Part shown: piece after piece, positions 30,354 to 61,139 of the stretch
Position numbering within the stretch: position 1 is the stretch's first letter
Layout of the letters: each line of letters begins with the position of its first letter
Assembly: GCA_048816425.1 (NCBI GenBank)
Contig: JBMDZZ010000028.1
Span: forward strand, 24,766 to 88,765
Length of the DNA stretch: 64,000 nucleotides
Direction: 5' to 3'
DNA from: Oligoflexus sp. FD111
GTDB taxonomy: Bacteria > Bdellovibrionota_B > Oligoflexia > Oligoflexales > Oligoflexaceae
Position numbers and translations under genes: made by a program
Notes under the pieces: model-generated
What the model was told of the DNA's origin: nothing
The model's input: only the letters and a program-made list of their open reading frames with translations
The model's database searches: none

Positions 30354-30824
30354 TCAAACGGCATTGGGCACTTGGTTTTCCAGCTTTAATCGAAATAGAA
30401 TTTGTTGCAAAAGATCTTCTCCCATCATCTCCGGTTCTGATTCAAGGTCAACCGCAATCTGATGAATCCAGTAATCGGCTTCTCCAACAGAAATTTCAAT
30501 ACTTCGTATTTTTTCGTTTTTCTGCTTATTTGCATTAGGATAAATTAGCCAAGCATTTTTCGATCCACTTGCAACCATATAAGCCAACATTTGATAGGCG
30601 TCTGCTGTGTTAATAGTATCCTTTTCAAAACTAGCTTTATACTTTGTATCTAAAATGGTGGACGATATAGGTTCTTGCCTCAGGCTGATTTGTAGGTCAG
30701 GGTAGCATTTCACATGGCTTGTGCGGTCCAAATACATTGACTTTTGCAAATGCAGATCAATACCATATGCAGATGCCGCTCGACTTAGACTTTTACTGAC
30801 ATAGCGCTCAAATAATGAAGCCAT
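30354..30824 (-). CDS. stand-alone McrC-like PD-(D/E)xK nuclease domain (156 aa)
   Basis: LFERYVSKSL ... STILDTKYKA ... ADAYQMLAYMV matches the McrC/LlaJI-type C-terminal nuclease block (FE.fv ... DtKYK ... yQ..aY). It lacks the N-terminal half of McrC. Confidence 0.5.
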   Translation of the reverse strand: MASLFERYVSKSLSRAASAYGIDLHLQKSMYLDRTSHVKCYPDLQISLRQEPISSTILDTKYKASFEKDTINTADAYQMLAYMVASGSKNAWLIYPNANKQKNEKIRSIEISVGEADYWIHQIAVDLESEPEMMGEDLLQQILFRLKLENQVPNAV

Positions 30825-30934
30825 ATTGTAAACGCCCCATTAACAAACGTCTAGCCCACCCAAAAGGAAAATCCTAGACTTGTCCTAGCAAGCCGGGCAT
30901 CCATTCAGCCTGAGTTGTTAGCCAGTCTACGAAT

Positions 30935-32032
30935 TTAAAGATTAGATGGGTAACCTATAAAATTTATTGGCTTTAGCTGACTATGCTTATCAACGGATCC
31001 TTTTAGTACATATATTCTACCGCCAATACTAAATTCGAATACTCTGTAGATACGGTATGACTCTCCGAAGATCTTTGATTTCTCAATTTCATTTAAAGAA
31101 ATTTTATACGGAGTGTTGATTCCGCCGTTAGTTGTTTTTACTTCTATGTAAATCACTGAACCATTTTCATCGAAAGACTCAATGTCGTAACCTAAACCGT
31201 CGCCTTCTTTATCAGATACCCACTTTACCCTTTCTGCTAGATCGGGACGTCCTATAGAGCTCAGCTTAATTTTCTCAGTTTCATAAACGAATTTTTCACC
31301 TAAATTACCTAGCTCCTTATTTGTTGCATATAGAGCGTCATATTCAGGTTTTGAAGAATTAAAGTTCCTGTTTTGTTCTGCAGGCAATTGCAGGATTGGA
31401 GGGTCAACAAATATTTCCTTTGAAGCATACTTTGGTACGATGATGAAACCAAGTTCCGACAATATTCTAAAGCATTTGGTCCCTCGGCCTCCTTTAAAAC
31501 CAAAAAGAACTTGCCCAGTCACGTACCTAGCAGCTAAGCCAACAAGTGCTTTAGGAGGATAACGTCGTTCGTTATATAGGACGTCATATCCTGTCGACTC
31601 TTTAAATTTGTGCGAAATTTTTTGCTCGTCAAAATCCCTGATGGCGTCGATAATATGCTCGTACGTTATATTGTCTGGAATTTCGCTATCAGGAAGATAC
31701 TCTCTCTTTTTATCAATGCGATTCTGTCCTGGGTCGAATTCGTCATTTAACCACCTTTCGACCTTACTATGTGTCGTTGTACTTATCTCAAGCAATACCC
31801 GAACTGCACGAATCACTTCGTAAACCCAAGTGTTTCGATGACTTAGGGAATAAGGTATGTTTGTAAACGGATTTATTCCAAAGGCATGTTTGCTTAGATA
31901 AATATCCCAGAGTTTTCTATCAGATTCTTTTTGAGTCTTTTTTAAAGCAAGGTCATATATAAGCTTCTGTATTTCTCTATCAGGAAAAGCTTCACGTATT
32001 GGAGTTGGAAGTTTCAATGATTCAAAATTCAT
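30935..32032 (-). CDS. DUF3883 (restriction-endonuclease-like) protein with a central domain resembling the ScoMcrA-type sulfur-binding/DNA-reader domain
   Basis: DUF3883: GEKFVYETEKIKL...VKWVSDKEGDGLGYDIESFDENGSVIYIEVKTTNG...YKISLNEIEKSK...YRIYRVFEF. The central segment YDVLYNERRYPPKALVGLAARYVTG...FKGGRGTKCFRILSELGFIIV contains Y-P-x-x-A, which I recall as the sulfur-pocket residues of the SBD. Confidence 0.65.
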   Translation of the reverse strand: MNFESLKLPTPIREAFPDREIQKLIYDLALKKTQKESDRKLWDIYLSKHAFGINPFTNIPYSLSHRNTWVYEVIRAVRVLLEISTTTHSKVERWLNDEFDPGQNRIDKKREYLPDSEIPDNITYEHIIDAIRDFDEQKISHKFKESTGYDVLYNERRYPPKALVGLAARYVTGQVLFGFKGGRGTKCFRILSELGFIIVPKYASKEIFVDPPILQLPAEQNRNFNSSKPEYDALYATNKELGNLGEKFVYETEKIKLSSIGRPDLAERVKWVSDKEGDGLGYDIESFDENGSVIYIEVKTTNGGINTPYKISLNEIEKSKIFGESYRIYRVFEFSIGGRIYVLKGSVDKHSQLKPINFIGYPSNL

Positions 32033-32089
32033 GATTAGCTCCTTAATTCTGTATTGCCACGGAGTTCGACGTCAAAAAAATTTCCCATT

Positions 32090-32761: not shown

Positions 32762-32975
32762 TGAGGTGCGTTGAACATAATTGGAGAAAATCGAATCTTT
32801 TGCTAAGCTACTATAATTGCGAAGGAGATTCGGTAGATGCAAAAGAATAGGCTCCATCGTTCTTTCGCAACCTAGCAAAAAACCGACATTGTTCGCTGTG
32901 TACAGTCCGACTCATCAATCCAGCAAGGGCTTTTTCAAGTACCTAGAGGTTGAAAATAGCCAGTTCAAAGAGGGT
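32762..32975 (+). mobile_element. solo left-end fragment (copy C) of the IS3-family element found at 33747 and 54741
   Basis: It starts TGAGGTGCGTTGAACATAATTGGAGAAAATC, nearly identical to the left ends of copies A and B. It carries the orfA start (MQKNRLHRSFAT*QKTDIVR...) with a stop and an internal deletion of ~130 nt, and it ends near CAGTTCAAAGAGG. Confidence 0.6.
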
Positions 32976-33746: not shown

Positions 33747-35198
33747 TGAGGTGCGTTGAACATAATTGGAGAAAATCAAATCTTTTACTAAGCTATCATA
33801 ATTGCGAAGGAGATTCGATCGATACAAAAGATGATACCCCGTCGTTCTTTCATACACCCCAGCAAAAAGCCGACATTGTTCGCGGTGTCCAGTCGGCTTC
33901 ATCAATCCAGCAAGCGCTTGACCAGATTGGATTTACCAGCAGCTTATACTACAAATGGTCGAGGCAGCTTGAGGTTGGAATCAACACTAGCCTTCGCAAC
34001 TCAAAACCCCTAAATTCTGTCGAATTGAAGCGCCTAATGGCTGAAAATAGGCAGTTCAAAGAGGTTGTTCTCAACCAATCACTGGAATTGACCATTTTAA
34101 AAAAAGATTGAGTTTGGATCCATGAAGGAGGGCTTCAGAGTGAGCTACGAATATAAAGTCGCAGTGATTGAATTTGTCGAACGCTAACTGGAGCTTGGTC
34201 AATCGCGGAGCAATACTTTGGCAACTTTAAAGATTTCGCCTTCAACTTACTATATAGCTGGAATAAGGCTGTCCTTAATGCAGAAAAGCCTAAGAAACCA
34301 GCCAAGCCACATCCTATGAAATTGACTCCAGGTGAAAAAGAGCTCATCCTCGCAACAAAAAAAAACTATCCAACGATGAGGCATAGGCAGATATAGGACG
34401 TGATGCAAGGTGAAGGCTGCAAAATTTCGCCAAGTTCAGTTTTTACCGTCTTAAAAGCTAACGGAAAGGTTGAACCTTTTAAGCGGCGTGAAGCACCGTG
34501 GAAAGAGCCTAAATACGAAGTGCGAGCTAGAAACCTTATTTGGGGAAAGGATTGGACGAAGATCAAGATCAATCACGAAACCTGGCAGCTTTTGGCTCTC
34601 ATCGTTTTTTCTAGAAAAGTCATTGCATGGGATATCCAGCCAAGCATCAATGCGGGCCATATCAAGGCGATCTATAGCCAAGCACTTGCGGCCGAGCAAC
34701 TAACGCACAAAAAGCAAAAGCTCAAGTGACGGGTGGATCAAGGTTCGCCCAATACCTCTTGGTCATCAATGAGTTTATTGCAAGCCTTGCAGGTGAGCTA
34801 TCGCTTGCGCGAGTCAGAAGGCCTATCGACAATGCAATAACAGGGCGGTTTTACGGCACGATAAAGCAAGAAGAGATTTTTGTAGTTGGTAGCTATCCTG
34901 ACCTGTGATCAGCTAAATCTGAAATAGGAAACTACATCGAATTTTATAATGAATACAGGCCACATCAAGCAATATGGTATTTACGCCCGACTATATGCAT
35001 GAGCTGTACAATAAATCGAAAGCATTGGCTGAGCTAGGGGTCATGAAACATGCCACTAAACGTCGCCACCGCGAGTACTGAGAGTTGAGGGAAGCTTATG
35101 ATTTATAGCAGAAATTCAGGCAAGAGTTGACGAATGTGCCAAGCCAGGATATCACACAAACCTGATCGGCTTTCTCCAAGTTCGACTTAAGCACCACA
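33747..35198 (+). mobile_element. IS3-family insertion sequence, copy A (1452 bp), with orfA and orfB both pseudogenised
   Basis: Left end TGAGGTGCGTTGAAC, right end ...GTTCGACTTAAGCACCACA (reverse complement TGTGGTGCTTAAGTCGAAC, IR-like). The orfA-like segment is QQKADIVRGVQSASSIQQALDQIGFTSSLYYKWSRQLE. The orfB rve landmarks W..DWTKI, FSRKVIAWDI, DQGSPNTS and DNAITGRFYGTIKQEEIF are interrupted by several stops and frameshifts. Confidence 0.75.
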
Positions 35199-35400: not shown

Positions 35401-36285
35401 ATGAAACTAGGTGGGCATCAGACTTTTCACCTCAGAGAGTCATGGCTTCATAAGGGCATGGCCTCTCTAGTGAACGACCATAGAATTTTCCAAGACGCCA
35501 TGGCGTCAAGTAGGCTTGGAGTTGGCAAGAACATGGTCGAAGCCATGCGGTATTGGCTTCAGGCATGTCAACTTGTAAAGATTGATGACGAATATAGCCT
35601 AAGTAAAGTTGGATCGAAAATCTATGAAGCTGATCCTTTTTTTGAGCTAGATGGTACAGTGCTATTGCTACATTATTTACTCGCAACAAACGAGAGGCAA
35701 GCAACTGCATGGCACTGGTTTTTTAATAAGTTTGGTGCGACCGACTTCGACATAGATGGAGTCCAAGTATACTTAACGACCTATCTTGCAAACACACTGA
35801 AGAAAAATAGTAGCCCAAATGTTATTAGGCGAGAGATACAATGTTTGCTCAAGATGTATACGGATGTCGAGTACAGGATACGGGAAACCCCAGAAACAGA
35901 AAACCCCTCTCCATTTTGTAGGTTTAAAAGCATTCAAAAGGATGGTGAGAAATATCGTAAAGTTGGATTTGACGTTAACTTGATCGATCCACTTATTTAT
36001 AGCTACTGCTTATATCTATTCTGGATAATGACTGAACGCCCAGCAACAATTTCTTTCGAAAATATTTGCAAGCAGCCGGGTTCACCAGGGGTTATCTTTG
36101 GACTTTCGAGTGATAGCAATATCTATATTCTCGAATTAGCAAAGGAAATCGATTCTGCTCCGATAGCAATTAGCAGGAGTGGAGGGTATTTTTCGATATC
36201 AATTGATGAAGAAAAAGCCGCTAAAACACTAGATTTTTATTACGATAAATATTCTGATCTTTTGCAGGAATCAAGATGGCTATAA
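35401..36285 (+). CDS. sspB: SspB-like DUF4007 protein (phosphorothioation-system nickase family)
   Basis: The N-terminus MKLGGHQTFHLRESWLHKG matches the DUF4007 signature as I recall it (GHETF.LR..WL.KG). It is the first gene of a 4-gene block with an ATPase, a PAPS-reductase-like protein and a cysteine desulfurase. Confidence 0.7.
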   Translation: MKLGGHQTFHLRESWLHKGMASLVNDHRIFQDAMASSRLGVGKNMVEAMRYWLQACQLVKIDDEYSLSKVGSKIYEADPFFELDGTVLLLHYLLATNERQATAWHWFFNKFGATDFDIDGVQVYLTTYLANTLKKNSSPNVIRREIQCLLKMYTDVEYRIRETPETENPSPFCRFKSIQKDGEKYRKVGFDVNLIDPLIYSYCLYLFWIMTERPATISFENICKQPGSPGVIFGLSSDSNIYILELAKEIDSAPIAISRSGGYFSISIDEEKAAKTLDFYYDKYSDLLQESRWL

Positions 36286-39979: not shown

Positions 39980-40798
39980 ATGTCACAATTCTTATACGAC
40001 GCAAATAGGCGTCAAATTTGTCCACTGTCTGGAGGAAAAGATTCAACTGCACTCGCAATTTTTCTGAAAGACAAGATTCCAAATCTAGAGTACGTCTTTA
40101 CTGATACGGGTGCCGAACTCCCTGAGACTTATGAGTATCTCGATAAATTAGAGGCTTTTTTAGGTAAACCAATCGTCCGATTAAATTCTGACAAACCGTT
40201 TGATTATCTTTTGAAAAGGCATGGTGATTACCTACCCTCTCCTAGAGCCCGCTGGTGTACTATTGAAATGAAAATAAAGTCGTTTGAGAAGTTTATCGGT
40301 GATGATCCTATTGAAAGTTATATTGGAATTCGAGCAGACGAAAATCGTGATGGTTATATTTCAAAGAAAGAATCCATAAAACCCCGCTATCCCTTTAAAG
40401 AGCTCGGAATAGACCTTGGGGGAGTGAATAAACTACTCGACCAAGCAGGAATCGGACTGCCTAAATACTATGAATGGCGATCAAGATCGGGGTGCTATTT
40501 CTGTTTCTTTCAAAGAAAAATCGAATGGGTAGGTTTAAAAGAAAGACATCCCGATCTATTTGAAAAAGCAAAAGAATACGAAACCCGAAGCTACAGGGGG
40601 GACGGGGTGAAATTCACTTGGGTTCAAGACTCCCCACTAGAGGAGATCGCGACTAACGCGGAATTTATAAAAGAAAATCATGCCAAAAGAATGGAGAGAG
40701 AGACTAAGAAGCAATCCAACAAACGCCTTTCCGATATTTTTAAAGATGTAGTGTCAGATGACGATATGGAAGACTCTTGTCTAATTTGTGACCTTTAG
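39980..40798 (+). CDS. sspD: SspD-like PAPS-reductase/ATP-pyrophosphatase family protein (DndC-related)
   Basis: The PP-loop is CPLSGGKDST. C-terminal cysteine clusters are SGCYFCFF and SCLICDL. The protein is 272 aa, shorter than canonical DndC. Confidence 0.75.
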   Translation: MSQFLYDANRRQICPLSGGKDSTALAIFLKDKIPNLEYVFTDTGAELPETYEYLDKLEAFLGKPIVRLNSDKPFDYLLKRHGDYLPSPRARWCTIEMKIKSFEKFIGDDPIESYIGIRADENRDGYISKKESIKPRYPFKELGIDLGGVNKLLDQAGIGLPKYYEWRSRSGCYFCFFQRKIEWVGLKERHPDLFEKAKEYETRSYRGDGVKFTWVQDSPLEEIATNAEFIKENHAKRMERETKKQSNKRLSDIFKDVVSDDDMEDSCLICDL

Positions 40799-40933: not shown

Positions 40934-42058
40934 ATGGTTGATGCGATTTATCTAGATTACAATGCCACGAGCCCGCTTTCTCCTTCCGTTATAAATTATA
41001 TTAAGGAAGGCATGATTAGAGATTGGGCTAATCCCTCCTCAGAGCATGATGCTGGCTATGAAAAAGCTATTGAAATACGGAAGAGCCGAAGCCGAATAGC
41101 CGATTTTCTTGGGTGCTCGACTAGCCAAATCACATTTACCAGTGGCGCTACAGAATCAATCAATACTGTATTGAGTGCTGATACGCTAGCAAGTCTAGGT
41201 GTTAAAACGGTCATTACCTCACCTATGGAGCATCACGCCACCCTTGATAGGGCGAAATACCTTGAAACAAAGGGTTTTCATATTAAAATGGTCCGGACTT
41301 TACCCACAGGTTCTTTGGATTACGATCATTTAGATCATCTCGCAAGTTTTAGTAAAAAAGCCATTATTTCCCTTCTATATACTAACAACGAGACTGGCAT
41401 AATCAATGATGTTAAAAAAATTTCTTCAATATCTCAACGTCACGGATGTCTAGTTCATATTGATGCCGTGCAGGCTCTTGGCAAAATCAAGTTTAGCTTA
41501 AACGAGCTGGAGGTGGATTTTGCCAGCTTTTCCGGCCATAAAATTGGATCACTTAAAGGAATCGGTATGCTGTATAGAAAGCAGCATGAAATTGTCCCCT
41601 TGATGCATGGAGGCGGACAAGAAAAAGCGCTTCGTCCAGGTACATACAATTTACCAGGTATCAAGTCGATAGAAATGGCGATATCAGATATCGATTTTGA
41701 TGCTATTGAAAAACGAGGATATGAGGCTCGCTTCGCTATCGAACAGCTGTTCAAACAGATCTTTCCTAGCGCCATAGTGAATGGCGCAGAGTGCGATAGA
41801 GTTTATAACACTATCAGTCTCGCCATACCCGAACATTCGAGCAAGGCAATTATGTTAGGAATGTCAAGGAGTGGTATTTATATTTCAACAGGTTCAGCCT
41901 GCTCATCAGGAATTGAAGTTGGAAGCCATGTACTAAAAGAGTTTACTGAGTTTGAAAAGAATTCTATCAGAATTTCGTTTTCTATATCGATGCTGGATCC
42001 ATCTGTAATACATACAATTTCGATGAAATTAAATGATTACAAGGTAAAGTCAATTTGA
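40934..42058 (+). CDS. sspA: cysteine desulfurase (NifS/IscS/DndA-SspA type)
   Basis: Class V aminotransferase fold. The PLP-lysine motif is SFSGHKIGSLKGIG and the catalytic Cys loop is STGSACSSG. Confidence 0.8.
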   Translation: MVDAIYLDYNATSPLSPSVINYIKEGMIRDWANPSSEHDAGYEKAIEIRKSRSRIADFLGCSTSQITFTSGATESINTVLSADTLASLGVKTVITSPMEHHATLDRAKYLETKGFHIKMVRTLPTGSLDYDHLDHLASFSKKAIISLLYTNNETGIINDVKKISSISQRHGCLVHIDAVQALGKIKFSLNELEVDFASFSGHKIGSLKGIGMLYRKQHEIVPLMHGGGQEKALRPGTYNLPGIKSIEMAISDIDFDAIEKRGYEARFAIEQLFKQIFPSAIVNGAECDRVYNTISLAIPEHSSKAIMLGMSRSGIYISTGSACSSGIEVGSHVLKEFTEFEKNSIRISFSISMLDPSVIHTISMKLNDYKVKSI

Positions 42059-42383: not shown

Positions 42384-42848
42384 ATGATTCTATTTGCAAC
42401 ATCTGCTGATAAAGCAATGATCGCTCTTTTATTTGCTAGCACTGCTATCAGCATTACGCCGAGGGTCAAAAAAATTTCGGAAAATCATGAACACATGGGG
42501 TCTGTTCGAGTTTTAGCAGGCAAAAATCAATTTAGCTTAGATAAGCTTGATATGAGATTCACTTGGCTTTCTAAGAGAAAACTTAAGTCTTTTAAAGTGT
42601 TAAATTGGATCTACAACATGACTAGCTACTTTCACACTAAAAGAGAAATAAGCAGCCACGAGAAAAAATCCCCACCAAAAGCTTATACATTCCCTACAAT
42701 AGAAAGTTCTGCAATCTCCACTAAAAACAAAGATATTATGAAAAGAGAGGAAGTAGGATCTGAGTTCAAATTCACTTTCGAAGTGAAAACTGAGGACTTC
42801 ATGCCGAATTCTAAAGAGAATGACATTTTACAAGGCTCCCGCTCTTAG
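42384..42848 (+). CDS. doubtful hypothetical ORF in the 870-bp spacer between the modification and restriction-like genes
   Basis: 154 aa, Lys/Ser-rich, with one N-terminal hydrophobic stretch. I see no recognisable motif or convincing RBS. Confidence 0.15.
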   Translation: MILFATSADKAMIALLFASTAISITPRVKKISENHEHMGSVRVLAGKNQFSLDKLDMRFTWLSKRKLKSFKVLNWIYNMTSYFHTKREISSHEKKSPPKAYTFPTIESSAISTKNKDIMKREEVGSEFKFTFEVKTEDFMPNSKENDILQGSRS

Positions 42849-44700: not shown

Positions 44701-44704
44701 TATT

Positions 44705-46195: not shown

Positions 46196-49100
46196 AAAGC
46201 TTAGCCCGTTACTATTTCAACAAAATCGTGAGAGAATACCAAGATTGGCTTCCTACCAATTCTACCCACGGTACACCCGGTAGAGTCATTCTCAGTGAGT
46301 TTGATTCAGATATTGTTAGTGAGATCTTTGATACATTCCATTCTTCTGACCTGAAGATTTCAGAGCCAGGGAGCGAGGATGGCATAATACTCCTTCTAGA
46401 AGATCATGAAATATATGTAGACATCAAAGAAAAAAAATATTCATTCGCCGACTTAACCCGAGAGCGAAATCGGGCCGGCAAGTTTTTTTGTGTCATGTTT
46501 ATAGCTGAAACAAAGCCTACTCACGAACAAGTTGCTAGTATTCATCAAGAAAGTATCTACGAAGAAGGAGAACTTGAAGAATGGGTAAATATATCGCTGT
46601 CCTATCATGCAAAAAGAGATCACTTCCCAATATCTCATACACGAGATATCGCTAAATTTCTAAACGAGTTGACACATAAAAAGTGGAATCATAGACCATC
46701 TATAAAGTTGAAGGAAATTAGCAGTTTCATTGCATCGGTAATTGATGACACTATCCAAGATGGTCTATTCTGGGATGCGCTTGGAAGAAATTTTACTAAA
46801 TTGGGAGGAATAAATCGCCTTGATAATTGTAGGAAGTTAGAAGGTGCAAAGTCTAAGTATAGATCTATTTTTCGAAAAGAGATCTCAAATACTCTCATTC
46901 CCGATCAGAACTTTTGGAGAGCTGTATACAAAGATCGGGAAGTAGAAAAATCAGAAATAGAAGATAACTTAAAAGACATTCTAGAAGAAGACTCAATTGA
47001 TTACTCATGTTTCTGTCAATCAATATCTGCATATTTCGAAAGCTACTTTGCTAACAGACCAGATACAAGTCTCCTTCAGCAGGAGATAAAAGACAAGTTC
47101 GATTCAACCTTTCCCTTCACCTCTGTACTTCATGCAAAAAAAACTAAATCTAAACTTCAGATTGGTGGGGAGACAAAAAAATTCTTATTAGAAAATGATG
47201 TAAATATTTCGGAAAATGATGAACTACTCCTTGAAAGCTTAGACTCCCGAGATAACAAGCCCGATAGGAATGAAATTAGGAGTTTCTACTTCCCTCGGCA
47301 GAGGCTACTTTCTACTGATCCTAAGTTAGATAAAGCATGGAAGAAAGAAGTCAGCTCAAGCAAAGATGTGGAATGTAGTAATTTACTTGATGGTATTCTC
47401 AAAGTATTGTCTAGCTACATACTTTTGACTGATATTGGCAACGATTCAGTATTGTTACGACAAAGAAGGGATAGAAGAAAGTCATCTCTTCAAAAAAAGA
47501 ACGTTGATGCCCTAAATTTCTTTCTTCATGAATATAAAGACCTCGACAAATTCTGGAGTCTTTTTGGTGATAAATTTGAACTCGATATAAAAGTATTTGA
47601 GTATGCTAATGATTTAGCCGATGAAAAACTAAAAGTTAGGAGTGGTAAACAAGCAAATATACTTGAATTTGAAATACTTCTTTATTCCATAGATCCGAAA
47701 TCGCCCTCTCAAGTATGGCACCTAAAATGGATCTTTGATCACAATGGCTTCGAAAGCATCAAACATTATGAATTGAATCATCTAAAATCAAGAAGAGGCT
47801 ACTACCACAAGCATGAATTAGCAATCGATCCTCTGTTTGTAAAACGTGCAGATAAGAACCCAAGTATAAAAAACAAAGAGATGTTTCAGGCGAGCGGGGC
47901 ATCGCGAAAACCTGGTTCAGTGGTCAAGAAAACAGATAAGCCAGATGATCTAATTTCAAAATTCCTTAAAGATCTTCAAAAGCACGGTCGACTATCAGAA
48001 CATGACCTAAATATACTAGAAAATTCTTATGAGAAATTTTATGAAGATTGGAAGCAGGCAATAGATCTGAATTCGACTACACCTATTACATCTGACCTTA
48101 CTTTCTTCAATTCTAGTTTCAATAGCTTTATTGACCTTATTGATAAAAAAACCTTAGAAGCTGAACACAAGAGAGAATTGTTTAAGCATATAAAAGCTGC
48201 CCACACTATTTCAGTAAAAGACACTCCTAATTATCTTTTATATCTTCCCTGGTCGCCCTTTAGTCTGCTAATGACATGGATGAAAAACAAAATTTTTCAT
48301 CAGATCGCAGGTTCTTATAAAAATGGATCGTTTAGAATTGGAAATCTTGATGATGGGGTGTTTCCTGATATTATAACAGAACTGGTGGAAAGCTTCGGCA
48401 ATACTTTTTATATAAATGATCACTCCGCCCCTCTTATATCAACGGCTTCGATCTGTGGCTATTATGAGTTTAGCTCTCTTGCTGATTCTAGAAATTCACT
48501 TTCAATCAAAGAAATAAAAAACGTCATGAATTCGGTGCTTCAAAAATTTTTGGAAGTCTATCCAAATCAGCGAGATCATATCGATATACTATTCGAGGGA
48601 ATAGGTTCATTTGAGCATCTTTTTGCTATCTATGAAGAAGCCTTAAAATTCTCAAGTGAACAAGAAGATCATTTTTCGATTCGAATACTATTCCACAGCA
48701 AGAATAATCGGGAGTTTTTAGATCTTTCATATGAAAGAATTACCGAAACATTCAACTCTCATTTATTAGACACTGATATTAAGATAGTGATAGTTGACAA
48801 CATTGAGTCCATTGAAGAGAACGAACTTGATTTAATTTTTAGCTTTGATCCTTTGTCTGTTGAAAAAAAATTGGCCCAGGACTCTGAAAAATTCTGCCTT
48901 TCGAATGAAAATTATGCGTTTTGGGAATATTGCAATACTAGAAAACTACCCTCAAACAAACTGTCTTTAAAAAGCTCTTTTGCGGTAAATAATCATAGAA
49001 TGGATTCAGTTTCAGCTGTCTTTCACAAGATTTCGATGATAACAGCTGCTAGGGATCGAACTGAGTCTTATTGTTTTGAAGTCTCACAGGACGTCATTAA

Positions 49101-51396
49101 GAATGAATTTTCCAAATCACTAAAAAAGTGCACCTGGCTAATAGTGTACGACTATTTATTGTCAAAAGAAACCTGCGCTGGAACTGCAACCGGGGCCAAT
49201 TCAAATAGAGTTTTACGATACGTTCAGGGAGAGGGCACAAAACGCTCCATGGCGATTGTTACTAGCAAGGACATTGACACCATAAAATCCAAGATATCAA
49301 ATAAGCTTCGGGATTTAAACCTTTCCACTGCCGGCAAAGTATCGAGCCTATGTGAGGAGCTATTTTCTATTTCTAATTCCTTCAGTGGCGATACTTTACT
49401 TAAAACCAGCGGTAATGGAAATTTTTCTCACGACCTTATAGGTAATGTCGGAACTATTCGATTAGTGGAAAGCCTGTTTGAGAATGCAAGAAAAATTGCT
49501 CCAATTTTTTGGGTTCACTTAGATGATTATGTCAATTGGTTTAAGTCATCAACTGAAGACGATTCCTTTAGGTATTTGGGGAAAAAGCGTTCATATATTT
49601 CTGATCTTTTAGGAATATTTTTAGATAGAACTGACGATAAAATAAGTCTCAATCTTATCGTTTGTGAATCCAAGTTGACAAATGGTTCGGATGATCAAAA
49701 GATTAAATCATGCAAGCAACTAGTAGCGACGTGTAGTTTAATCAAAGGTATGTTAGCTAGCTCGAAACTCTTCGATTACAAATATTGGGTAAATAAATTT
49801 TTGGAATTTGTTATTGAGAACTTTGACTTCAATCCTAATTTGCTGTCGTTTCATGATCTTATGAAAGTAAATGCGGAGGATATGGACATTTTTCTATCAG
49901 GAATTTCTTCAATACTGCTGTATGGAGATAATTCAGAAGAAACGAGATTTGAGAAAGTGAAAGAGGAAAACTATTTGCGACAGATTATTGTCTCTACAGA
50001 AGACACTAGAAAGATTTTTGATTCGATAAGTCGTGGTGAACATCCTGTAATTAAAGACCTCTACAACAACTTAGAGCCCATAAAACTAAATAGCTCTTCC
50101 CTATTAGGACATATAGTAGCTTATCCAAAAATCGATAACACTCAGAAAATTCCTGAAAGACCATCTTCTGAAGTTAAAGAAGTAAATGAAACAGACAACT
50201 TAGATAATACAACCGAAGAGGCGCTCCCGGTCTCTCGATGCTTGAGCCTTTTAAATAAAGCGATAAATTTTCTAGACGAAAATACTCTCACTGTTCAAGA
50301 TACAGACCCGGTTAATATCGATAGAGTTCAAGAAGGCATACGAACAATATTCTCTCATCATAACTTACCATCCAAGTTTTTAGAATCGCAAACTACTCCT
50401 AACTCAGTCGTAATAAAAGTAGCCGGAAACATAAAAATATCTGCAAAAAAAGTTCTTTCTATGCGAGATAATTTTGTCTCGGTAGCGAGTTTACATCTTC
50501 GAAAGGTTTATCCAGAACCAGGCTGCATGGTCTTGGTTTTCGATCGCAATACCAGAGAACGAGTCCTCTATGTTTCTCTTTTAAGAGAATCTTTAAAAAA
50601 TCGAAGAACAACCCTCGAATTAGACTTCAACAACAAAATCATTCTTGGTCTAGATGAGTTTAAAAAAAATATCTGTTACTATAGGCTGGATGGCCCAAGC
50701 CCTCATGCTCTAGTCGGAGGACAGACAAAGTCAGGAAAATCGGTTTTGATGAATAATATGATCATGGATCTTATTCTGACTAACGATCCAAAATATCTTA
50801 AACTCAGACTATTTGATCCAAAACAAGTTGAATTTTCGTCCTACAGCGAAGCGCCACATCTCGCACACCCAGTGGTAGTCGATAAGCAAGAAGCTGTTCA
50901 CTGGCTTAAAGATATCGAAGACTTAATGAACGCACGCTACGAAAGCTTCTCTAAACTAAACTTAAAAGACATAGAGTCTTACAATAATAAATACCCAGAG
51001 AATAGGATGTCTCGACACATCGTTTTCTTTGATGAGTTAGCTGACTGGATTTTGGACGATCATTTTAAGGAGAATGCTAAGGATATTATAATTAGAGTTT
51101 CTTCCAAAGGGAGAGCTGCAGGTGTACATCTAGTAATAGCAACTCAAAGGCCAAGCAATGATGTCGTCTTCCCACTTCTAAGGGCGAATTTGGATACTAA
51201 AATTGCATTGAAAGTCGATCGAGATCAAAACTCGGTTATCATTTTAGGGGAATCTGGCGCCGAAGACCTTTTAGGGTATGGGCATGGTATAATTAAAACA
51301 GAGGGTGAAACCCACTATATTCAAGGTGGCTTTACTGAGGCCTCAATTTTTGAGCAGCTTATAGACCTAGCTATTGAATTTTGGAGAAACCAATAA
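46192..51396 (+). CDS. DptH/SspH-like giant protein with a C-terminal FtsK/HerA-type motor ATPase
   Basis: 1734 aa with a TTG start overlapping the upstream stop. C-terminal motifs are Walker A VGGQTKSGKSV, Walker B IVFFDELAD and HLVIATQRPS (the FtsK/SpoIIIE hallmark). Confidence 0.7.
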   Translation: MKSLARYYFNKIVREYQDWLPTNSTHGTPGRVILSEFDSDIVSEIFDTFHSSDLKISEPGSEDGIILLLEDHEIYVDIKEKKYSFADLTRERNRAGKFFCVMFIAETKPTHEQVASIHQESIYEEGELEEWVNISLSYHAKRDHFPISHTRDIAKFLNELTHKKWNHRPSIKLKEISSFIASVIDDTIQDGLFWDALGRNFTKLGGINRLDNCRKLEGAKSKYRSIFRKEISNTLIPDQNFWRAVYKDREVEKSEIEDNLKDILEEDSIDYSCFCQSISAYFESYFANRPDTSLLQQEIKDKFDSTFPFTSVLHAKKTKSKLQIGGETKKFLLENDVNISENDELLLESLDSRDNKPDRNEIRSFYFPRQRLLSTDPKLDKAWKKEVSSSKDVECSNLLDGILKVLSSYILLTDIGNDSVLLRQRRDRRKSSLQKKNVDALNFFLHEYKDLDKFWSLFGDKFELDIKVFEYANDLADEKLKVRSGKQANILEFEILLYSIDPKSPSQVWHLKWIFDHNGFESIKHYELNHLKSRRGYYHKHELAIDPLFVKRADKNPSIKNKEMFQASGASRKPGSVVKKTDKPDDLISKFLKDLQKHGRLSEHDLNILENSYEKFYEDWKQAIDLNSTTPITSDLTFFNSSFNSFIDLIDKKTLEAEHKRELFKHIKAAHTISVKDTPNYLLYLPWSPFSLLMTWMKNKIFHQIAGSYKNGSFRIGNLDDGVFPDIITELVESFGNTFYINDHSAPLISTASICGYYEFSSLADSRNSLSIKEIKNVMNSVLQKFLEVYPNQRDHIDILFEGIGSFEHLFAIYEEALKFSSEQEDHFSIRILFHSKNNREFLDLSYERITETFNSHLLDTDIKIVIVDNIESIEENELDLIFSFDPLSVEKKLAQDSEKFCLSNENYAFWEYCNTRKLPSNKLSLKSSFAVNNHRMDSVSAVFHKISMITAARDRTESYCFEVSQDVIKNEFSKSLKKCTWLIVYDYLLSKETCAGTATGANSNRVLRYVQGEGTKRSMAIVTSKDIDTIKSKISNKLRDLNLSTAGKVSSLCEELFSISNSFSGDTLLKTSGNGNFSHDLIGNVGTIRLVESLFENARKIAPIFWVHLDDYVNWFKSSTEDDSFRYLGKKRSYISDLLGIFLDRTDDKISLNLIVCESKLTNGSDDQKIKSCKQLVATCSLIKGMLASSKLFDYKYWVNKFLEFVIENFDFNPNLLSFHDLMKVNAEDMDIFLSGISSILLYGDNSEETRFEKVKEENYLRQIIVSTEDTRKIFDSISRGEHPVIKDLYNNLEPIKLNSSSLLGHIVAYPKIDNTQKIPERPSSEVKEVNETDNLDNTTEEALPVSRCLSLLNKAINFLDENTLTVQDTDPVNIDRVQEGIRTIFSHHNLPSKFLESQTTPNSVVIKVAGNIKISAKKVLSMRDNFVSVASLHLRKVYPEPGCMVLVFDRNTRERVLYVSLLRESLKNRRTTLELDFNNKIILGLDEFKKNICYYRLDGPSPHALVGGQTKSGKSVLMNNMIMDLILTNDPKYLKLRLFDPKQVEFSSYSEAPHLAHPVVVDKQEAVHWLKDIEDLMNARYESFSKLNLKDIESYNNKYPENRMSRHIVFFDELADWILDDHFKENAKDIIIRVSSKGRAAGVHLVIATQRPSNDVVFPLLRANLDTKIALKVDRDQNSVIILGESGAEDLLGYGHGIIKTEGETHYIQGGFTEASIFEQLIDLAIEFWRNQ

Positions 51397-54740: not shown

Positions 54741-56179
54741 TGAGGTGCGTAGAACATAATTGGAGAAAATCGACTCTTTAACTAAGCTATTATAATTGTG
54801 AAGGAGATTCGATCGATGCAAAAGTAGAGACCCCCGTCGTTCTATCCCACCCCAGCAAAAAGCCGACATTGCCTGCGATGTCCAGCCCGCTTCATCAATC
54901 CAGCAAGGGCTTGACCAGTTTGGAATTACCAGTAGCTTGTATTACAAATGGTCAAGACTGCTTGAGGTTGGAATGAACGATAGCCTTCGCAACTCAAAAC
55001 CCCTAAAATCTGTCGACTTGAAGCGCCTAGAGGCTGAAAATAGGCAGTTCTCAACCAATCACTGGAATTGACAAGTTTAAAAAAAGATTGAGCTTGGATC
55101 CATGAAGGAGGGCCTCAGAGTGAGCTACGAATATAAAGTTGAAGTAATCGAATTTGTCGAACACCAACAGGAGCTTGGTTAATCGCAGAGCAAGACTTTT
55201 GGAACTCTAGAGATTTCGCCTTCTACTTACTATAGCTGGAATAAGGCTATCCTTAATGCAGAAAAGCCTAAGAAACCAGCCAAGCCACATCATATGAAAT
55301 TGACTCCAGATGAAAAAGAACTCATCATCGCAACAAAAAAGACAATCCAACGATGAGGCATAGGCTGATACAGGGCTTGAACCAAGCTGAAGGCTGCTAT
55401 ATTTCGCCAAGCTCGGTTTTTACCGTCCTAAAGGCCAATGGGTTGGTTGAGCCTTTTGAGCGGCGTGAAGCGCCGTGGAAAGAGCCTAAATATGAAGTGC
55501 GAGCAAGGAACTTGTTGTGGGGAACAGATTGGACGAAGTTCAAGATCAATCACGAAACCTGGCAGCTTTTGACTCTCATTGACTTTTTTTCCAGAAAAGT
55601 CATCGCTTGGGATATTCAGCCTAACATCAGTGCGGGCCATATCAAGGCACTATAGCCAAGCGCTTGCAGCCCGGCAACTAACGAACAAAAAGCAAAAGCC
55701 GAAGCTTCGGGCGGATAAAGGTTCCCCCTAACACTTCTTGGGTCATCAAGGAGTTTATTGCAAACCTTGCAGGCTAGCTATCGCTTGCGCTTGTCAGAGG
55801 TCCTGCCGACAATGCAATAACAGAGCGGTTTTACGGCACCAAAAAGCAAGAAGAGATCTTTGTGGTTGGTAGCTACAATCAGCTAAAACTGAAATAGGAA
55901 ACTATATCGAATTTTATAATGAATATAGGTCACATCAAGTGATATGGAATTTTACGCCCGACTATGTTCATGAGCTGAACAATAAATCGAAAGTATAGGC
56001 CGAGCTAGAGACCATGAAATATGACACCAAACGTCGTCGCCGTGAGTGCTGGTAATTAAAAGAAGTTTACGAATTACAGCAGAAATTCAAGCAAGAGTTG
56101 ACGAAGGCGTCAAGTCAGAATATCACACAAACTTGATCGATTCTCTCCAAGTTCGACTTAAGCACCACATAATATCGTT
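54741..56179 (+). mobile_element. IS3-family insertion sequence, copy B (1439 bp), pseudogenised, same orientation as copy A
   Basis: It has the same termini as copy A (TGAGGTGCGTAGAAC ... GTTCGACTTAAGCACCACA). orfA reads MQK* and carries an internal deletion. The orfB-like frame (REAPWKEPKYEVRARNLLWGTDWTKFKINHETWQLLTLIDFFSRKVIAWDI) is broken by stops. Confidence 0.75.
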
Positions 56180-56323: not shown

Positions 56324-58465
56324 TCATGGTAGCAGCGCGAGCTGGAGCCCATACTCGGCAATTATATCGTTAAGTACCTCCACTGTATCAGAAAAGTTGA
56401 CTGAATGTTCTGCAAACTCTTTTACACGTTTAAGCTCTTGTTCAATTAGTTTTCTTTCATGGTGTCGATCAAGAACGTTATTTGGCAGTCGGATGAAAAA
56501 GTCAAATATCCTTGCTTTGTCTTTTCCTGGTGCTTTTCTGAGAACGCGCCCTCTTCTTTGTATGTACTGCCTTGGATTTCGGCTGCTAGCAAGTATATAG
56601 GCATCCTGGCAAGCAGGAATGTCAACCCCTTCATCAAGACACCTAATTGCAGCTAAAACAAGTACGTTCCCTTGGTTGAATTCTTTTAAAATCATTTGGC
56701 GTTGGAGGCTTGACTCTCGAGATGTGTAACGAGAAGCGCGGTAACCAATTGAATCTATTGCTGAAGTCACAGCATCTATTTGTCGCGATGATTCGTTAAT
56801 TTCCTCATCGCCAACAGAACCGTCACCACAATATATGAGTGTTCGCGACGTGATACCCCGCTGTTTGATCTGCTCTATAAGGGATACTAGCTTGTTCTTT
56901 GCACTCCCTAAAATCCGTGATCGCTCGAACATAAGCAGCTCAAGTCCGCCTGCTCTTGAGCTAATAGCCCTATCGATATTTCCCCCACTTGAAGCTAGCG
57001 CTTTAGCGATTCTGTCCGATAGCTCCTGATATTCTTCATACTCGCTATCTGTAAGTTCAACTATCTCAATATGATATTCGTAAGGGCACAGAACACCTAA
57101 ACTGAGCGCTTCTTCTATTCCAAATGTGTAGACGACGTCCCCATAGAAGTCTTCCAGCCTTGCAGTGCCTTCTTGATCCCCATATCGCTCGTATGTTGCT
57201 GAAAGACCCATTCTCCACTCGCTATGGGAAGGAAGCGATTTGTAATAGTTTTCAGTACCATGATAATGACACTCATCACCAATAAACAACAAACTTTCCC
57301 CTGGAACTCTATGTATTGCTTTTTGAAACTCGCCAGATAAAAAACTCTTATTTACAACAACCACAGCTTCAAAATTTGTGCGACTACTAATAAATGCATT
57401 AACACCATTATTTAACTCTTCCAGCCATTTCATCTTTCCTCCGAAACATTTAACTGGAAATATGTTAAAATCACGTAATTCTTCTACCCATTGTTCTACA
57501 AGATTTTGGTATGGTACTGCGATCACGATGAACAATCGACGTCTATTCTCGAAGACCTTTGCAGCGCCATAGATTGCGGTTAAGGTTTTTCCAGCTCCTG
57601 TTGCCATATTGAAAATACCTTGGAAATTATGGGACTTCCACGAATTTAGAGCCGATCTTTGATGAGGCCGTATTTCAAAACTAACCGGAATCTCGGGGCC
57701 ATAGATTTTTTCTTCACGGAGTGCTTTATATTTCAACGCTAGCGCGACTTCATTGTCAGGTCCGATTTCATTACGAGGTTTATGTAACTCGAGAATTTTT
57801 TCTGCGACAGCTTTAGGAAAGTCGAGTGTTATGGTTCCCTTTGAATTCCCATTCCACAAATCTTCAAACATCTGTTTATAAGGCTGAGAGTGTGCAGTTT
57901 CTGCCTGATTCCAGCTCCTGAAGACATTGATCACTTCATAGTTGAAACCAGATTCTAGAGCATGTAGAGAGTCATTTGCTGACCCTTGGAATACAATTAC
58001 GTTGTCCAACTCATCAGTCATTATGCCAATTTTTGCATGAAACATTCCCTTTGCTCTGAGTGCAACTTTAATTTCGATCAACTCTTTTTCAACCAGATAG
58101 CTAAGAGCTTCCCACCTCATTTTTATCAGATCGTTTCCAGTAGATCCTTGCACAATCTGGATGAACTGCTCTGTCAGGGACTCATTACAGCGAATAAGAA
58201 CTTCTTCTCTGCTTTTGTATCCCTTTGAGATAGCCTCCCGATCTCTCTCGTCCAGCACTGCCCCTACTAGTAGACGCATGCGTCCATTATTTCGTATAAA
58301 CGCAGTTAATCCTTGTGTAGCAAGAGAGATCATAGATGCTGAAAAGAACCCTACCGCGCGATCAAATCTGACGCTTTGGCTCAAAGATGGTATATAGAAT
58401 TCTCTGAGGATATCATCAGTCTCAGAACTGTATACTGCTTTCAAATTCGAAAATCTGTAGCTCAA
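56324..58465 (-). CDS. PLD-nuclease + SF2 (type III restriction res-like) helicase fusion, of the 'DNA phosphorothioation system restriction enzyme' type
   Basis: HKD motif FHAKIGIMTDELDNVIVFQGSAN. Helicase motifs are I NMATGAGKT, II FIGDECHY, III LGLSAT and VI QRRGRVLR. The TTG start overlaps the upstream stop. Confidence 0.75.
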   Translation of the reverse strand: MSYRFSNLKAVYSSETDDILREFYIPSLSQSVRFDRAVGFFSASMISLATQGLTAFIRNNGRMRLLVGAVLDERDREAISKGYKSREEVLIRCNESLTEQFIQIVQGSTGNDLIKMRWEALSYLVEKELIEIKVALRAKGMFHAKIGIMTDELDNVIVFQGSANDSLHALESGFNYEVINVFRSWNQAETAHSQPYKQMFEDLWNGNSKGTITLDFPKAVAEKILELHKPRNEIGPDNEVALALKYKALREEKIYGPEIPVSFEIRPHQRSALNSWKSHNFQGIFNMATGAGKTLTAIYGAAKVFENRRRLFIVIAVPYQNLVEQWVEELRDFNIFPVKCFGGKMKWLEELNNGVNAFISSRTNFEAVVVVNKSFLSGEFQKAIHRVPGESLLFIGDECHYHGTENYYKSLPSHSEWRMGLSATYERYGDQEGTARLEDFYGDVVYTFGIEEALSLGVLCPYEYHIEIVELTDSEYEEYQELSDRIAKALASSGGNIDRAISSRAGGLELLMFERSRILGSAKNKLVSLIEQIKQRGITSRTLIYCGDGSVGDEEINESSRQIDAVTSAIDSIGYRASRYTSRESSLQRQMILKEFNQGNVLVLAAIRCLDEGVDIPACQDAYILASSRNPRQYIQRRGRVLRKAPGKDKARIFDFFIRLPNNVLDRHHERKLIEQELKRVKEFAEHSVNFSDTVEVLNDIIAEYGLQLALLP

Positions 58466-58926: not shown

Positions 58927-58927
58927 T

Positions 58928-60976
58928 TTAAGTTACCTCCTCAATCGAGACGTCACCTGAATCTCCAAGCTGACTTAATGCATTTAGAGTTATTGCACCA
59001 AGGTGGTACCTTGTCTCATTGATGCTAGTAGTATCACTTCCTACCGATGATAAGACTAAAATATATTCCTTACCAATAAACTGCTTAGTTCTAGATGACT
59101 GCAAACCTGCCGACTGAAAGTCGGAAACAAGAATTACTACTTGCTCAGCGAGCTCCGGAATTGATTCAACAATTACTGACTGAAAAGTACTATCAAGTTG
59201 ACCGAAAGGCGCGTCGAGTACAAGAGGTGCCACAGTTCCTGGTATAAATAAACGACTAGATTCATGTAATCTCTTAGAGCAAAAATTTATTAACGCGGCT
59301 GTGAAAGCAAGTGTTAACATTTGGTTTTCACCTGTACTTCTCGATCCATAAAAGTTAGTCTCTTTGTTTCTCAGCTGTAGATTGAAATCCGAATCGAATT
59401 CAGCATCATAGCTTCGATGCATTTTACTTACGTACTGATTCAAAATTTTTCCGATTTCATTGCGAGCAATTAACTCATGCTCATTTGCTACGTCTTCCAA
59501 ATACGTGGCTAAATTTCCACAGATATCTCTTAGTTTTTTTTGCTTTATCTTCCTGGGAACTGTTGCTGTCATCTTATCGTAGTCTTCCTGCTGCTTTTTA
59601 AGAAGTGGTTTCAACTCCATCTTGATCTTTCGACTTATATCACCAGTTTCCGATGTCAATTGTTTTATAATTTCCAAGCTCTTTTGTTTTTTCTCGTTAG
59701 CGTCCCTAACTGCTTCGATGTCTACTTTTCTCAATTTTTCCTGTAATTCATCGATTTCGTCATCTAATTTTTTAATTTTACTGTGTGACGCCTCAATCCT
59801 TTTAGAGATTTGCTGATATGAGTGTCTTGCAGGCCTATACCTATCCTGAAAATATTTGACAGCAGATTGGGCTTCAATTGCTTTTTCTTGAATGTTCTTG
59901 TCTCCGGCATCAGTTAAAAGTGAACGGATTTTTTCATATTCAATTTCTCCTTCAGAAAATGAACGACCACAAATACATTCTAGGCTATTTAGAATATTCA
60001 TAATAAAAGGCTCTTGATAATCAGCGGGTAGCTTACCTCTAATCTCAGGAAGATCAATCAGATCCTCAGTATCGTTTGCTAAGGAAAAAGACATGCTATA
60101 GATAGCGTCTTTTCTTAGCCACTCGAAAAGTAAAACCTTATTCTCATTGAGCTCCCGAGTTTGTCCCTGCAAATCAATTATTTTAGATTGTAGAGATTCT
60201 TGAATTTCCTTACTCCCAGCATTATTTTCTAAAACCTTGTCTGCGTCAGACATAGCATCTTGCGCTAGATCAATTTGGGATTTCTTTTTTTCAATTGTGC
60301 TTTCAAGTTCGGAAATTCGATCCAGTATACTTTCGATATTTCTGGCAAGATCTTTTATTTGTTGATCGTCTAAATCATCTGACAGTTCCTTGTTGAATTT
60401 TCTTTCGACTTGGCGCAAATCTGCAATCGTAGTATCTAATGTAGTACTCCCAAGTATTTGTCGAATGGCTGTTTTTACATTCTTTTTATTTGCATTGCCT
60501 TGCATAGATTGAGCCTTTTTTTCACCATGAAAGAAAAATTGACTCGACATCTCGGGAGGTACTACTCTGTTGACTAGAGCTTCGATTCTAGGAACTGGAG
60601 TGCTGCTTCCAAATTCTGATTTTTCGTATAGGGTGCAGGAATGTTTCGACTTAAACTTGCCATTCCCTAGAAAAGTGTATTCAACCAATCGATTTATCTC
60701 ATATATTTTTTGCTCGAATTCGAACTGTAAGTTAACACTAGAGGTTGACCCACCATTTTTCTGGGCGTTGAAGTTTAGCAACATGTCTGGATTCTCGAAG
60801 TCAGGTTGAGTTTTCCCATGTAGAGCCCAGCAAATTGCATTCAGAATTGTGGATTTACCAAAGCTATTCATTCCATAGATGACAGTCACATTCTGGTTTT
60901 CTCCAGAAGCAAATTCTATGGTGTTTTGGCCCCTGAACTGTCTAAAGTCCGTCAGAGTTAATTTCTTTAGTCGCAT
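58928..60976 (-). CDS. DndD-like SMC/ABC-type ATPase
   Basis: I chose the start at ATG 60976 (MRLKKLTLTDFRQFRG). Walker A is YGMNSFGKSTILNAICWALHG. A long coiled-coil middle region follows, then GENQMLTLAF (signature-like) and Walker B/D-loop PLVLDAPFGQLDS. Confidence 0.8.
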   Translation of the reverse strand: MRLKKLTLTDFRQFRGQNTIEFASGENQNVTVIYGMNSFGKSTILNAICWALHGKTQPDFENPDMLLNFNAQKNGGSTSSVNLQFEFEQKIYEINRLVEYTFLGNGKFKSKHSCTLYEKSEFGSSTPVPRIEALVNRVVPPEMSSQFFFHGEKKAQSMQGNANKKNVKTAIRQILGSTTLDTTIADLRQVERKFNKELSDDLDDQQIKDLARNIESILDRISELESTIEKKKSQIDLAQDAMSDADKVLENNAGSKEIQESLQSKIIDLQGQTRELNENKVLLFEWLRKDAIYSMSFSLANDTEDLIDLPEIRGKLPADYQEPFIMNILNSLECICGRSFSEGEIEYEKIRSLLTDAGDKNIQEKAIEAQSAVKYFQDRYRPARHSYQQISKRIEASHSKIKKLDDEIDELQEKLRKVDIEAVRDANEKKQKSLEIIKQLTSETGDISRKIKMELKPLLKKQQEDYDKMTATVPRKIKQKKLRDICGNLATYLEDVANEHELIARNEIGKILNQYVSKMHRSYDAEFDSDFNLQLRNKETNFYGSRSTGENQMLTLAFTAALINFCSKRLHESSRLFIPGTVAPLVLDAPFGQLDSTFQSVIVESIPELAEQVVILVSDFQSAGLQSSRTKQFIGKEYILVLSSVGSDTTSINETRYHLGAITLNALSQLGDSGDVSIEEVT

Positions 60977-60998
60977 GATATAGATCCATACAAGTATA

Positions 60999-61139
60999 TT
61001 AATCGAGTGAGTTAAGGATAATTTCCTGGATTTTTTTTTGACGTTCTTGTGGTGATGTATTTTCTGCAATCAACGTACGAATCGTATCAACAATCAATTC
61101 TGCTAAGCTAATCAAATCATCATCTATCTCAAAGGGCAT
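60999..61139 (-). CDS. 46-aa acidic ORF heading the DndD-like operon
   Basis: Sequence MPFEIDDDLISLAELIVDTIRTLIAENTSPQERQKKIQEIILNSLD. GGGGAG lies 9 nt upstream of the ATG, and the ORF ends 22 nt before the DndD-like start. Confidence 0.3.
   Translation of the reverse strand: MPFEIDDDLISLAELIVDTIRTLIAENTSPQERQKKIQEIILNSLD

Follow-up and report, generated by a model that had tools for sequence, protein, structure and literature searches.

A probable horizontally acquired phosphorothioation defence island in Oligoflexus sp. FD111: an Ssp-SspFGH locus and a Pbe cassette of separate origin

The stretch of DNA considered here (the window: 64,000 nucleotides of contig JBMDZZ010000028.1 of Oligoflexus sp. 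FD111, assembly GCA_048816425.1) contains the genes of a phosphorothioate (PT) writer, SspBCDA, together with two predicted effector modules, SspFGH and PbeABCD, and this region is probably a horizontally acquired PT defence island made of two units of separate origin. The first unit (35.4-54.2 kb) would be a canonical Ssp locus bracketed by two decayed direct copies of an insertion sequence (IS) of the IS3 family, and the second (56.3-61.1 kb) a complete, intact and independently acquired PbeB-C-D-A cassette. The gene map was obtained from the list of open reading frames (ORFs) of the window and from profile searches against Pfam, PADLOC and NCBIfam (table 1). Four PT-linked candidates had been recognized in a first-pass annotation of the sequence, namely an ssp-like writer at 35.4-42.1 kb, an FGH-like trio, a cassette with DndD-like and phospholipase D (PLD)-helicase components and a possible reader combining a sulfur-binding domain (SBD) with DUF3883. 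Three of them are real and intact (SspBCDA, SspFGH and PbeBCDA), whereas the DUF3883 protein is without an SBD. The motifs checked in SspA, SspC, SspD, SspF, SspH, PbeA and PbeC are all conserved, and the lengths of the proteins match those of their homologues. Therefore, the PT modules are not the clusters of pseudogenes that had been envisaged as an alternative.

Table 1. Features of the window, grouped by unit. aa, amino acid residues; nt, nucleotides; PLP, pyridoxal phosphate; SAM, S-adenosylmethionine; SF2, superfamily 2.
Feature	Position	Strand	Match or remark
SspB (DUF4007)	35401..36285	+	Pfam DUF4007 219 bits; PADLOC SspB 191 bits
SspC, ORC/Cdc6-type ATPase, 1223 aa	36276..39947	+	Walker A GSPGLGKS; PADLOC 515 bits
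SspD, PAPS-reductase-fold sulfurtransferase	39980..40798	+	PP-loop SGGKDS; PADLOC 366 bits
SspA, cysteine desulfurase	40934..42058	+	PLP lysine in SGHK, active cysteine in TGSAC; PADLOC 307 bits
154-aa ORF without homologue	42384..42848	+	absent from related SspFGH loci
SspF, P-loop protein	42928..44700	+	Walker A GTAGDGKT; PADLOC SspF 795 bits, full length
SspG	44645..46195	+	PADLOC SspG 634 bits
SspH, 1734 aa, C-terminal FtsK/SpoIIIE motor	46192..51396	+	PADLOC 529 bits; Pfam FtsK_SpoIIIE 118 bits
TIGR04096 'DNA phosphorothioation-associated putative methyltransferase', 677 aa	51587..53620	-	618 bits, cutoff 150
LAS/M15-like zinc-hydrolase-fold protein, 187 aa	53592..54155	-	29-nt overlap with methyltransferase gene
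PbeA, HKD (PLD) endonuclease fused to SF2 helicase	56324..58465	-	PADLOC PbeA 784 bits; PLDc_2, ResIII and Helicase_C domains
PbeD, DndE cognate (TIGR04062, dnd_assoc_4), 154 aa	58462..58926	-	76.0 bits, cutoff 74.25
PbeC, CxC-type ABC ATPase, 682 aa from ATG at 60976	58928..60976	-	PADLOC PbeC 456 bits
46-aa acidic ORF (MPFEIDDDLISLAEL...)	60999..61139	-	22 nt upstream of pbeC ATG; DNA read directly
IS3-family remnant, copy A (broken transposase)	33747..35198	+	left bracket of Ssp block
IS3-family remnant, copy B	54741..56169	+	direct repeat of copy A; right bracket
Third, shorter IS3 fragment	32762-32973
ScoMcrA_N-DUF3883 stand-alone nuclease, 365 aa	30935..32032	-	N-terminal region 1-103; ScoMcrA_N ~120-200; NOV_C/DUF3883 245-335
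Small class-I SAM methyltransferase, TehB-like, 195 aa	33033..33620	+	between IS remnants
McrC C-terminal fragment, 156 aa	30354..30824	-	match limited to positions 216-318 of the 318 of Pfam McrBC
NurA-like/HerA-like gene pair	26973-30294	+
DUF4268/NucS-like protein	25213-26385
AbiEi/AbiEii pair	23441-25017
YhcG PD-(D/E)xK nuclease	8819-9724
Fic-domain protein	5779-7299
RHS/FG-GAP/SpvB-type polymorphic toxin genes (two)	4-3885 and 15174-21428

The division into two units is first apparent from the IS remnants. Copies A and B are in direct orientation, 84-95% identical and ~20,980 bp apart, and they enclose sspBCDA, sspFGH, the TIGR04096 methyltransferase gene and the gene of the 187-aa protein, while Pbe and the DUF3883 gene are both found outside the bracket, copy B dividing the Ssp block from Pbe. 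The Ssp-SspFGH-methyltransferase-LAS gene order was found again, without IS copies, on marine metagenome contigs. All PT blocks are also compositionally foreign to the genome of the host (45.4% GC; 5-kb windows with the 5th percentile at 40.9% and the 1st at 38.4%), with GC values of 38.1% for the SspBCDA block, 35.6% for SspFGH, 35.8% for the methyltransferase pair and 39.1% for Pbe, all under the 5th percentile, the value for the IS copies being 43.9%. That the blocks differ in base composition, as previously noted, is correct with respect to the genome, but the spread among the blocks is only ~3 points. The IS scars that had been described between the blocks are indeed the two direct IS3 copies, and the stepwise accretion proposed with them agrees with the IS3 bracket and with the separate ancestry of the Pbe cassette discussed below. 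In the genome (6.2 Mb, 96.6% complete) no DndC, no further copy of the Ssp and Pbe genes and no DUF262/GmrSD_N protein was found, the latter result implying that SspE and DndB are also absent.

The genes of the writer are contiguous (35401-42058) and all four match their PADLOC profiles, in agreement with the initial assignment of an ssp-like writer. SspB is the predicted DNA-recognition and nicking subunit; SspA would supply the sulfur, and SspB, SspC and SspD would install a single-strand PT, presumably at CCA sites (5'-CpsCA-3') as in other members of the family. The SspC subunit is peculiar in being only ~24-26% identical to the SspC proteins of loci that share ~50% identity in SspD and ~48-55% in SspF, SspG and SspH, and it is longer than the PADLOC SspC profiles by 100-170 residues; it appears to have either evolved much faster or been exchanged. 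The 154-aa ORF at 42384..42848 may not be a gene.

The FGH-like trio is well supported by the PADLOC scores, and SspH, ~50% identical to homologues of Vibrio, Marinomonas and Thalassotalea, carries Walker A (GKS) and Walker B (DE) motifs that are invariant in the alignment of homologues. The true start of SspG is probably downstream of position 44645 because the profile begins at ORF residue 41. A search for SspF in a sample of 400 Gammaproteobacteria gave 0 matches because SspFGH is too rare for sampling, and the comparison set consists of 15 metagenomic loci from a scan with an SspH alignment. SspF-G-H were present in 14 of these 15, in the order seen in the window, with SspB-C-D adjacent wherever the upstream flank was long enough (11 loci with B, C and D), which points to the Ssp-SspFGH unit as a conserved arrangement. 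SspE-like DUF262-DUF1524 genes were observed in two of these SspFGH loci (L089:15508-17592 and L093:14812-16899; the prefix L numbers the loci of the comparison sets).

Damage by SspFGH to DNA that lacks the PT mark, with toxicity when the mark is missing and phage protection when it is present, has been shown for Vibrio anguillarum FF-93 only (Wang et al. 2021, PMC8092258). The SspABCD-SspFGH system of this organism comprises the same seven families, with sspBCD followed by sspFGH, a Walker A motif in SspF and a C-terminal FtsK/SpoIIIE motor in SspH. By analogy, SspFGH of the window very probably reads the Ssp mark and would damage DNA without it. However, the two loci also differ: in the window sspA is part of the cluster, placed between sspD and sspF, while iscS takes this role in FF-93 (PMC8092258), SspC of the window is only ~25% identical to related SspC proteins, the block is bracketed by IS3 copies, and a second candidate effector is present alongside.

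The Ssp/SspFGH block includes, as conserved members, the TIGR04096 methyltransferase and its LAS-like partner, a link that had escaped the first-pass annotation; both would travel with the Ssp locus. The methyltransferase gene is convergent on sspH, and a homologue was found in convergent orientation directly past sspH in 9 of the 15 SspH loci, although in one of them the match is partial because the contig ends there, with the 187-aa LAS-like gene coming next in 3 of the 15. In the TIGR04096 tree, the Ssp-associated clade, formed by 7 FGH-linked and 5 Pbe-linked sequences and the copy of the window, is split from the Dnd-associated ones with 100/99 support, so that the enzyme tracks the writer rather than the effector. 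With regard to the LAS-like protein, its model (predicted local distance difference test score, pLDDT, 86) is structurally most similar to 1LBU, a zinc DD-peptidase of Streptomyces (probability 0.91; template-modelling score, TM, 0.42), followed by LAS-type endolysins, and the residues H95, D116 and H150 do not vary. The LAS-like part of Dnd-linked loci is fused to the C-terminus of the methyltransferase in ORFs of 849-952 codons (L009:18148-20904, L011 and L056) and, on the basis of such fusions, the two proteins probably act together.

The cassette of the second unit is a complete PbeABCD set, encoded on the minus strand in the order PbeB-C-D-A (61139-56324); systems of this type have also been named CxC ABC ATPase-DndE (Rakesh et al. 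2024, PMC10853773). The re-annotation in PMC10853773 is followed here in naming PbeB the small protein, PbeC the CxC ABC ATPase, PbeD the DndE cognate and PbeA. In PbeA the HxK...N (H143, K145, N164), GxGKT and DECH motifs are invariant in the alignment, although its score against TIGR04095 (491 bits) is under the curated cutoff of 600; in PbeC the Walker A (GMNSFGKST), Walker B (VLDAPFGQLD) and CxC (LECICGR, at ORF residues 365-367) motifs were identified. The 46-aa acidic ORF fits PbeB by position and size only, with a role inferred from PMC10853773. A 97-aa ORF at 61129-61422 was dismissed as a component of the cassette, being basic, without matches and overlapping the start of the 46-aa ORF. 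Within the family of the host, a PbeA homologue was found in one member only (45% identity), a relative labelled Oligoflexales (L054). All four Pbe components of the Haloterrigena jeotgali A29 DndCDEA-PbeABCD system (Xiong et al. 2019, PMC6459918) are thus found in the window. Differences from this system are the B-C-D-A order, the lack of a Dnd writer in the genome and the presence of Ssp, 14 kb away, as the only PT writer; furthermore, the archaeal PbeA was reported to be without DNA-cleavage activity (PMC6459918), whereas the PbeA sequence of the window keeps the HKD residues.

The relation between Pbe and PT writers was studied in the 80 best PbeA loci from species genomes of several phyla, retrieved with a PbeA alignment, since a single PbeA sequence as query retrieved no related loci. 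They were typed by tblastn with the proteins of the window and with the DndB, DndC and DndD proteins of an Azospirillum locus, the identity of which had been verified. Ssp-linked loci amount to 37 and Dnd-linked ones to 27, while 16, mostly on short contigs, are neither; in the subset of 51 loci with full 10-kb flanks, the corresponding numbers are 25, 22 and 4. Thus, a PT writer is found beside Pbe in 47 of the 51 full-flank loci (92%), about half of these writers being SspBCD, which bears out the PT link of the cassette suggested earlier. Among the Ssp-linked loci, which span at least 18 families, the median gap between cassette and writer is 309 bp (500 bp or less in 24 of 37), and unsupervised clustering of their ORFs returned as widely conserved only SspC, PbeA, SspB, PbeC, SspD, PbeD and SspA. 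In Brevundimonas diminuta and Alteromonas genovensis, SspB, SspC and SspD beside PbeC/D/A were confirmed by PADLOC with scores of 266-1370 bits. Pbe-type cassettes are, therefore, regular partners of Ssp writers. In the accessible literature no paper describing the Ssp-Pbe pairing was found (Krishnan et al. 2020 or Xiong et al. 2020 might mention it), and a 2025 review keeps dndFGH/sspFGH, sspE and pbeABCD as separate branches. An SspE-like DUF262-DUF1524 gene was also observed in ~9 of the 37 Ssp-Pbe loci (L016:19889-22060, L036, L062, L063, L068, L069 and L084 among them). From these genes and those in the SspFGH loci it follows that the stacking of two effectors on one Ssp writer is a common pattern. 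A TIGR04096 gene is present in 7 of the 37.

Phylogenies indicate how freely effectors and writers have been combined. SspD of the window groups, with 100/99 support, with 8 SspD proteins linked to FGH and 3 linked to Pbe, and elsewhere on the tree FGH-linked and Pbe-linked sequences are sister tips with branches shorter than 0.1, so that closely related Ssp writers have been paired with either effector. This interleaving is the strongest, albeit indirect, indication from the sequences that both effectors would recognize one type of mark. Writer type is strongly clustered on the PbeA tree (8 changes versus 27 for shuffled labels), but it switched at least 7-8 times, from which it follows that re-pairing of Pbe with writers is common.

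By taking these data into account, it is proposed, with slightly more doubt than conviction, that Pbe of the window is a second PT-conditioned effector acting on the Ssp mark, the only mark available. No DndCDEA writer adjoins the cassette and the nearest writer is SspBCDA; the proposal is plausible because the family is almost always linked to a writer, re-pairs readily and has no other writer here. Several observations weigh against it. The cassette and the writer are separated by 14 kb and an IS remnant, as opposed to the ~0.3 kb of natural pairs. PbeA of the window is on a long branch, sister (95% SH-aLRT support) to two Dnd-linked Acidobacteria; the nearest PbeA sequences are all Dnd-linked, and so are the best matches of PbeC and PbeD. 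Forcing PbeA into the Ssp-linked Pbe clade of the relatives of its writer costs 49 log-likelihood units, with p 0.03 in the approximately unbiased (AU) test, a value obtained with a reduced set of 31 sequences and the LG+G4 model, which is weaker than a mixture model, and with long branches involved, so that long-branch effects on this placement are possible. Since the cassette groups with Dnd-linked ones, it may be tuned to the double-strand Dnd-type PT. Furthermore, SspFGH and Pbe were found together in 0 of the 95 comparator loci (80 Pbe and 15 SspFGH): SspF, SspG and SspH are absent within 10 kb in all the Pbe loci, and PbeA and PbeC are absent from all the SspFGH loci, three of which have 10 kb of sequence on the downstream side. 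Genome-wide, an SspF-like gene was detected in 0 of 7 and in 2 of 30 Ssp-Pbe genomes, with only 27% identity in the latter two. Finally, CxC/Pbe systems have been argued to be capable of acting without PT (PMC10853773). It is the Dnd-like ancestry and the 14-kb separation behind the IS remnant that keep the odds close to even.

The same observations give substance to a different explanation, doubtful but still to be reckoned with, according to which Pbe is an orphan that lost its Dnd writer, e.g. by IS-mediated rearrangement, and is now PT-independent or idle, with SspFGH as the only reader of the Ssp mark. Besides the Dnd-linked ancestry of PbeA, PbeC and PbeD and the outcome of the AU test, it would account for the absence of DndC from the genome and for the IS remnant that abuts pbeA. 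It also finds precedents in the 4 full-flank loci with no writer nearby, in the CxC systems reported without PT genes and in the proposal by Aravind's group that CxC systems are abortive-infection or self-triggered nucleases (PMC10853773). However, all the Pbe motifs are intact, which argues against long disuse, the great majority of full-flank cassettes abut a writer, changes of writer have been frequent on the PbeA tree, and archaeal PbeABCD needed PT for defence (PMC6459918).

It is improbable that the TIGR04096 methyltransferase, rather than PT, is the self-marking partner of Pbe in a restriction-modification-like system that merely neighbours Ssp. Cytosine methylases have been reported with CxC/Pbe systems (PMC10853773), the gene is between sspH and Pbe and on the same strand as Pbe, and a homologue is present in 18 of the 80 Pbe loci. 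However, the remaining 62 are without it, whereas 9 SspFGH loci have it without Pbe. Moreover, it lies with Ssp inside the IS bracket that leaves Pbe outside, its tree follows the type of writer, with the copy of the window in the strongly supported Ssp-associated clade, and no DPPY/SPPY-type DNA-methylase motif IV was found in it.

The remaining candidate of the first-pass annotation, the 365-aa DUF3883 protein, has a real NOV_C/DUF3883 domain (75 bits), the fold of which matches the restriction-endonuclease-like one. The profile of its 46-sequence family matches ScoMcrA (5ZMM) at residues 3-94 only (E 7e-16), and the top Protein Data Bank match found by Foldseek for the AlphaFold model (pLDDT >90 in the ScoMcrA_N domain, PF26345, a name taken from precomputed Pfam annotations) is the same 83-column stretch of ScoMcrA. 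This part of ScoMcrA, residues 1 to ~90, is a 'head domain... with an unknown function', while the SBD corresponds to residues 91-260, with a cavity of H116/R117/Y164/P165 at a site that reads YPFWAL (PMC6224610). No match of the 365-aa protein to the solved SBDs was found by phmmer or Foldseek, and its N-terminal 103 residues match no SBD. The string RRYPPKA (Y-P-x-x-A) was considered as a sign of the SBD cavity and rejected as coincidental, because the profile places it in the head domain, whereas the SBD site is YPFWAL.

Like ScoMcrA (PDB 5ZMM/5ZMO, PMC6224610), the 365-aa protein has an N-terminal head domain; unlike it, it is without SBD, SRA and HNH domains, the nuclease being of the DUF3883/restriction-endonuclease fold. 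Three homologues were found in an integrative element that also encodes a VapE-type primase, in an Azospirillum prophage and beside an RHS toxin, with PT genes in none of these contexts, and among the defence-family models PDC-S36 and PD-T4-1 come closest. The most fitting description is that of a predicted single-gene defence nuclease of the PDC-S36/PD-T4-1 kind with a putative DNA-binding head; on present evidence, the protein is not a PT reader. Residues 1-103 (given as 30935-31243) are missing from almost all family members and share 69% identity with the N-terminal part of an Oligoflexus protein of 246 aa whose C-terminus is different; they look like a lineage-specific, swappable module. 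That the protein would nevertheless cut PT-modified DNA, so that opposing PT-dependent and PT-protected nucleases would coexist in the cell, is very hard to sustain: its relation to ScoMcrA, a PT-dependent enzyme, is confined to the head domain, named ScoMcrA_N in Pfam, and does not extend to the SBD, the resemblance of RRYPPKA to Y164-P165...A168 of ScoMcrA is superficial, no solved SBD is matched by sequence or fold, and PT genes are missing from the three homologue contexts. Since there is no SBD, the clash between modules attacking unmodified and modified DNA that had been anticipated is left without basis.

Other genes of the window may be mentioned briefly. The TehB-like methyltransferase gene is stranded among the IS remnants near sspB and has homologues in 6 of the 37 Ssp-Pbe loci (L048:15511-16152, L050, L061 and others); it could be an accessory gene that recurs with Ssp and not a passenger. 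The McrC fragment is a remnant outside the PT system; it adjoins the DUF3883 gene, with no McrB or McrC N-terminal part nearby, and looks like what is left of a McrBC system that decayed. Conflict systems are also abundant in the left half of the window (1-26400). Among solved structures, the HerA-like ATPase is closest to TdpA (8WET, E 2.7e-20), a component of the PT-based TdpABC system, over the C-terminal 200 residues only, and the NurA-like partner matches TdpB weakly (E 0.05). A scan of the region for promoters and terminators gave fewer matches than shuffled sequence and was not used.

The locus is a variant of known systems, with an Ssp-Pbe link for which no describing paper was found in the accessible literature. 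As in the 36 genomes reported to have SspBCD with both SspE and SspFGH, the protection by the two being additive (PMC8092258), one Ssp writer is accompanied by more than one effector module, except that the second effector of the window is Pbe rather than SspE and that the genome is without DUF262 protein. It is conceivable, though less than likely, that Pbe-type cassettes are a third widespread class of SspBCD effectors, interchangeable and stackable with SspE and SspFGH, of which the window would be a rare FGH plus Pbe case. As ~84% of sspBCD clusters have been reported without a known restriction partner (PMC8092258), the SspBCD-Pbe adjacency would give a candidate effector to part of them, and it bears on the dispute between the view of Pbe/CxC systems as PT-dependent (PMC6459918) and that of autonomous systems (PMC10853773). 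The idea of a self-conflict between a PT writer and a neighbouring reader that attacks PT can be abandoned. With one writer, two intact and unrelated effectors and no competing Dnd or SspE, the window is a clean starting point for combinatorial reconstitution and, if Pbe is indeed a third effector class, it would allow a direct test of how one sparse modification of the DNA backbone is read by unrelated machines.

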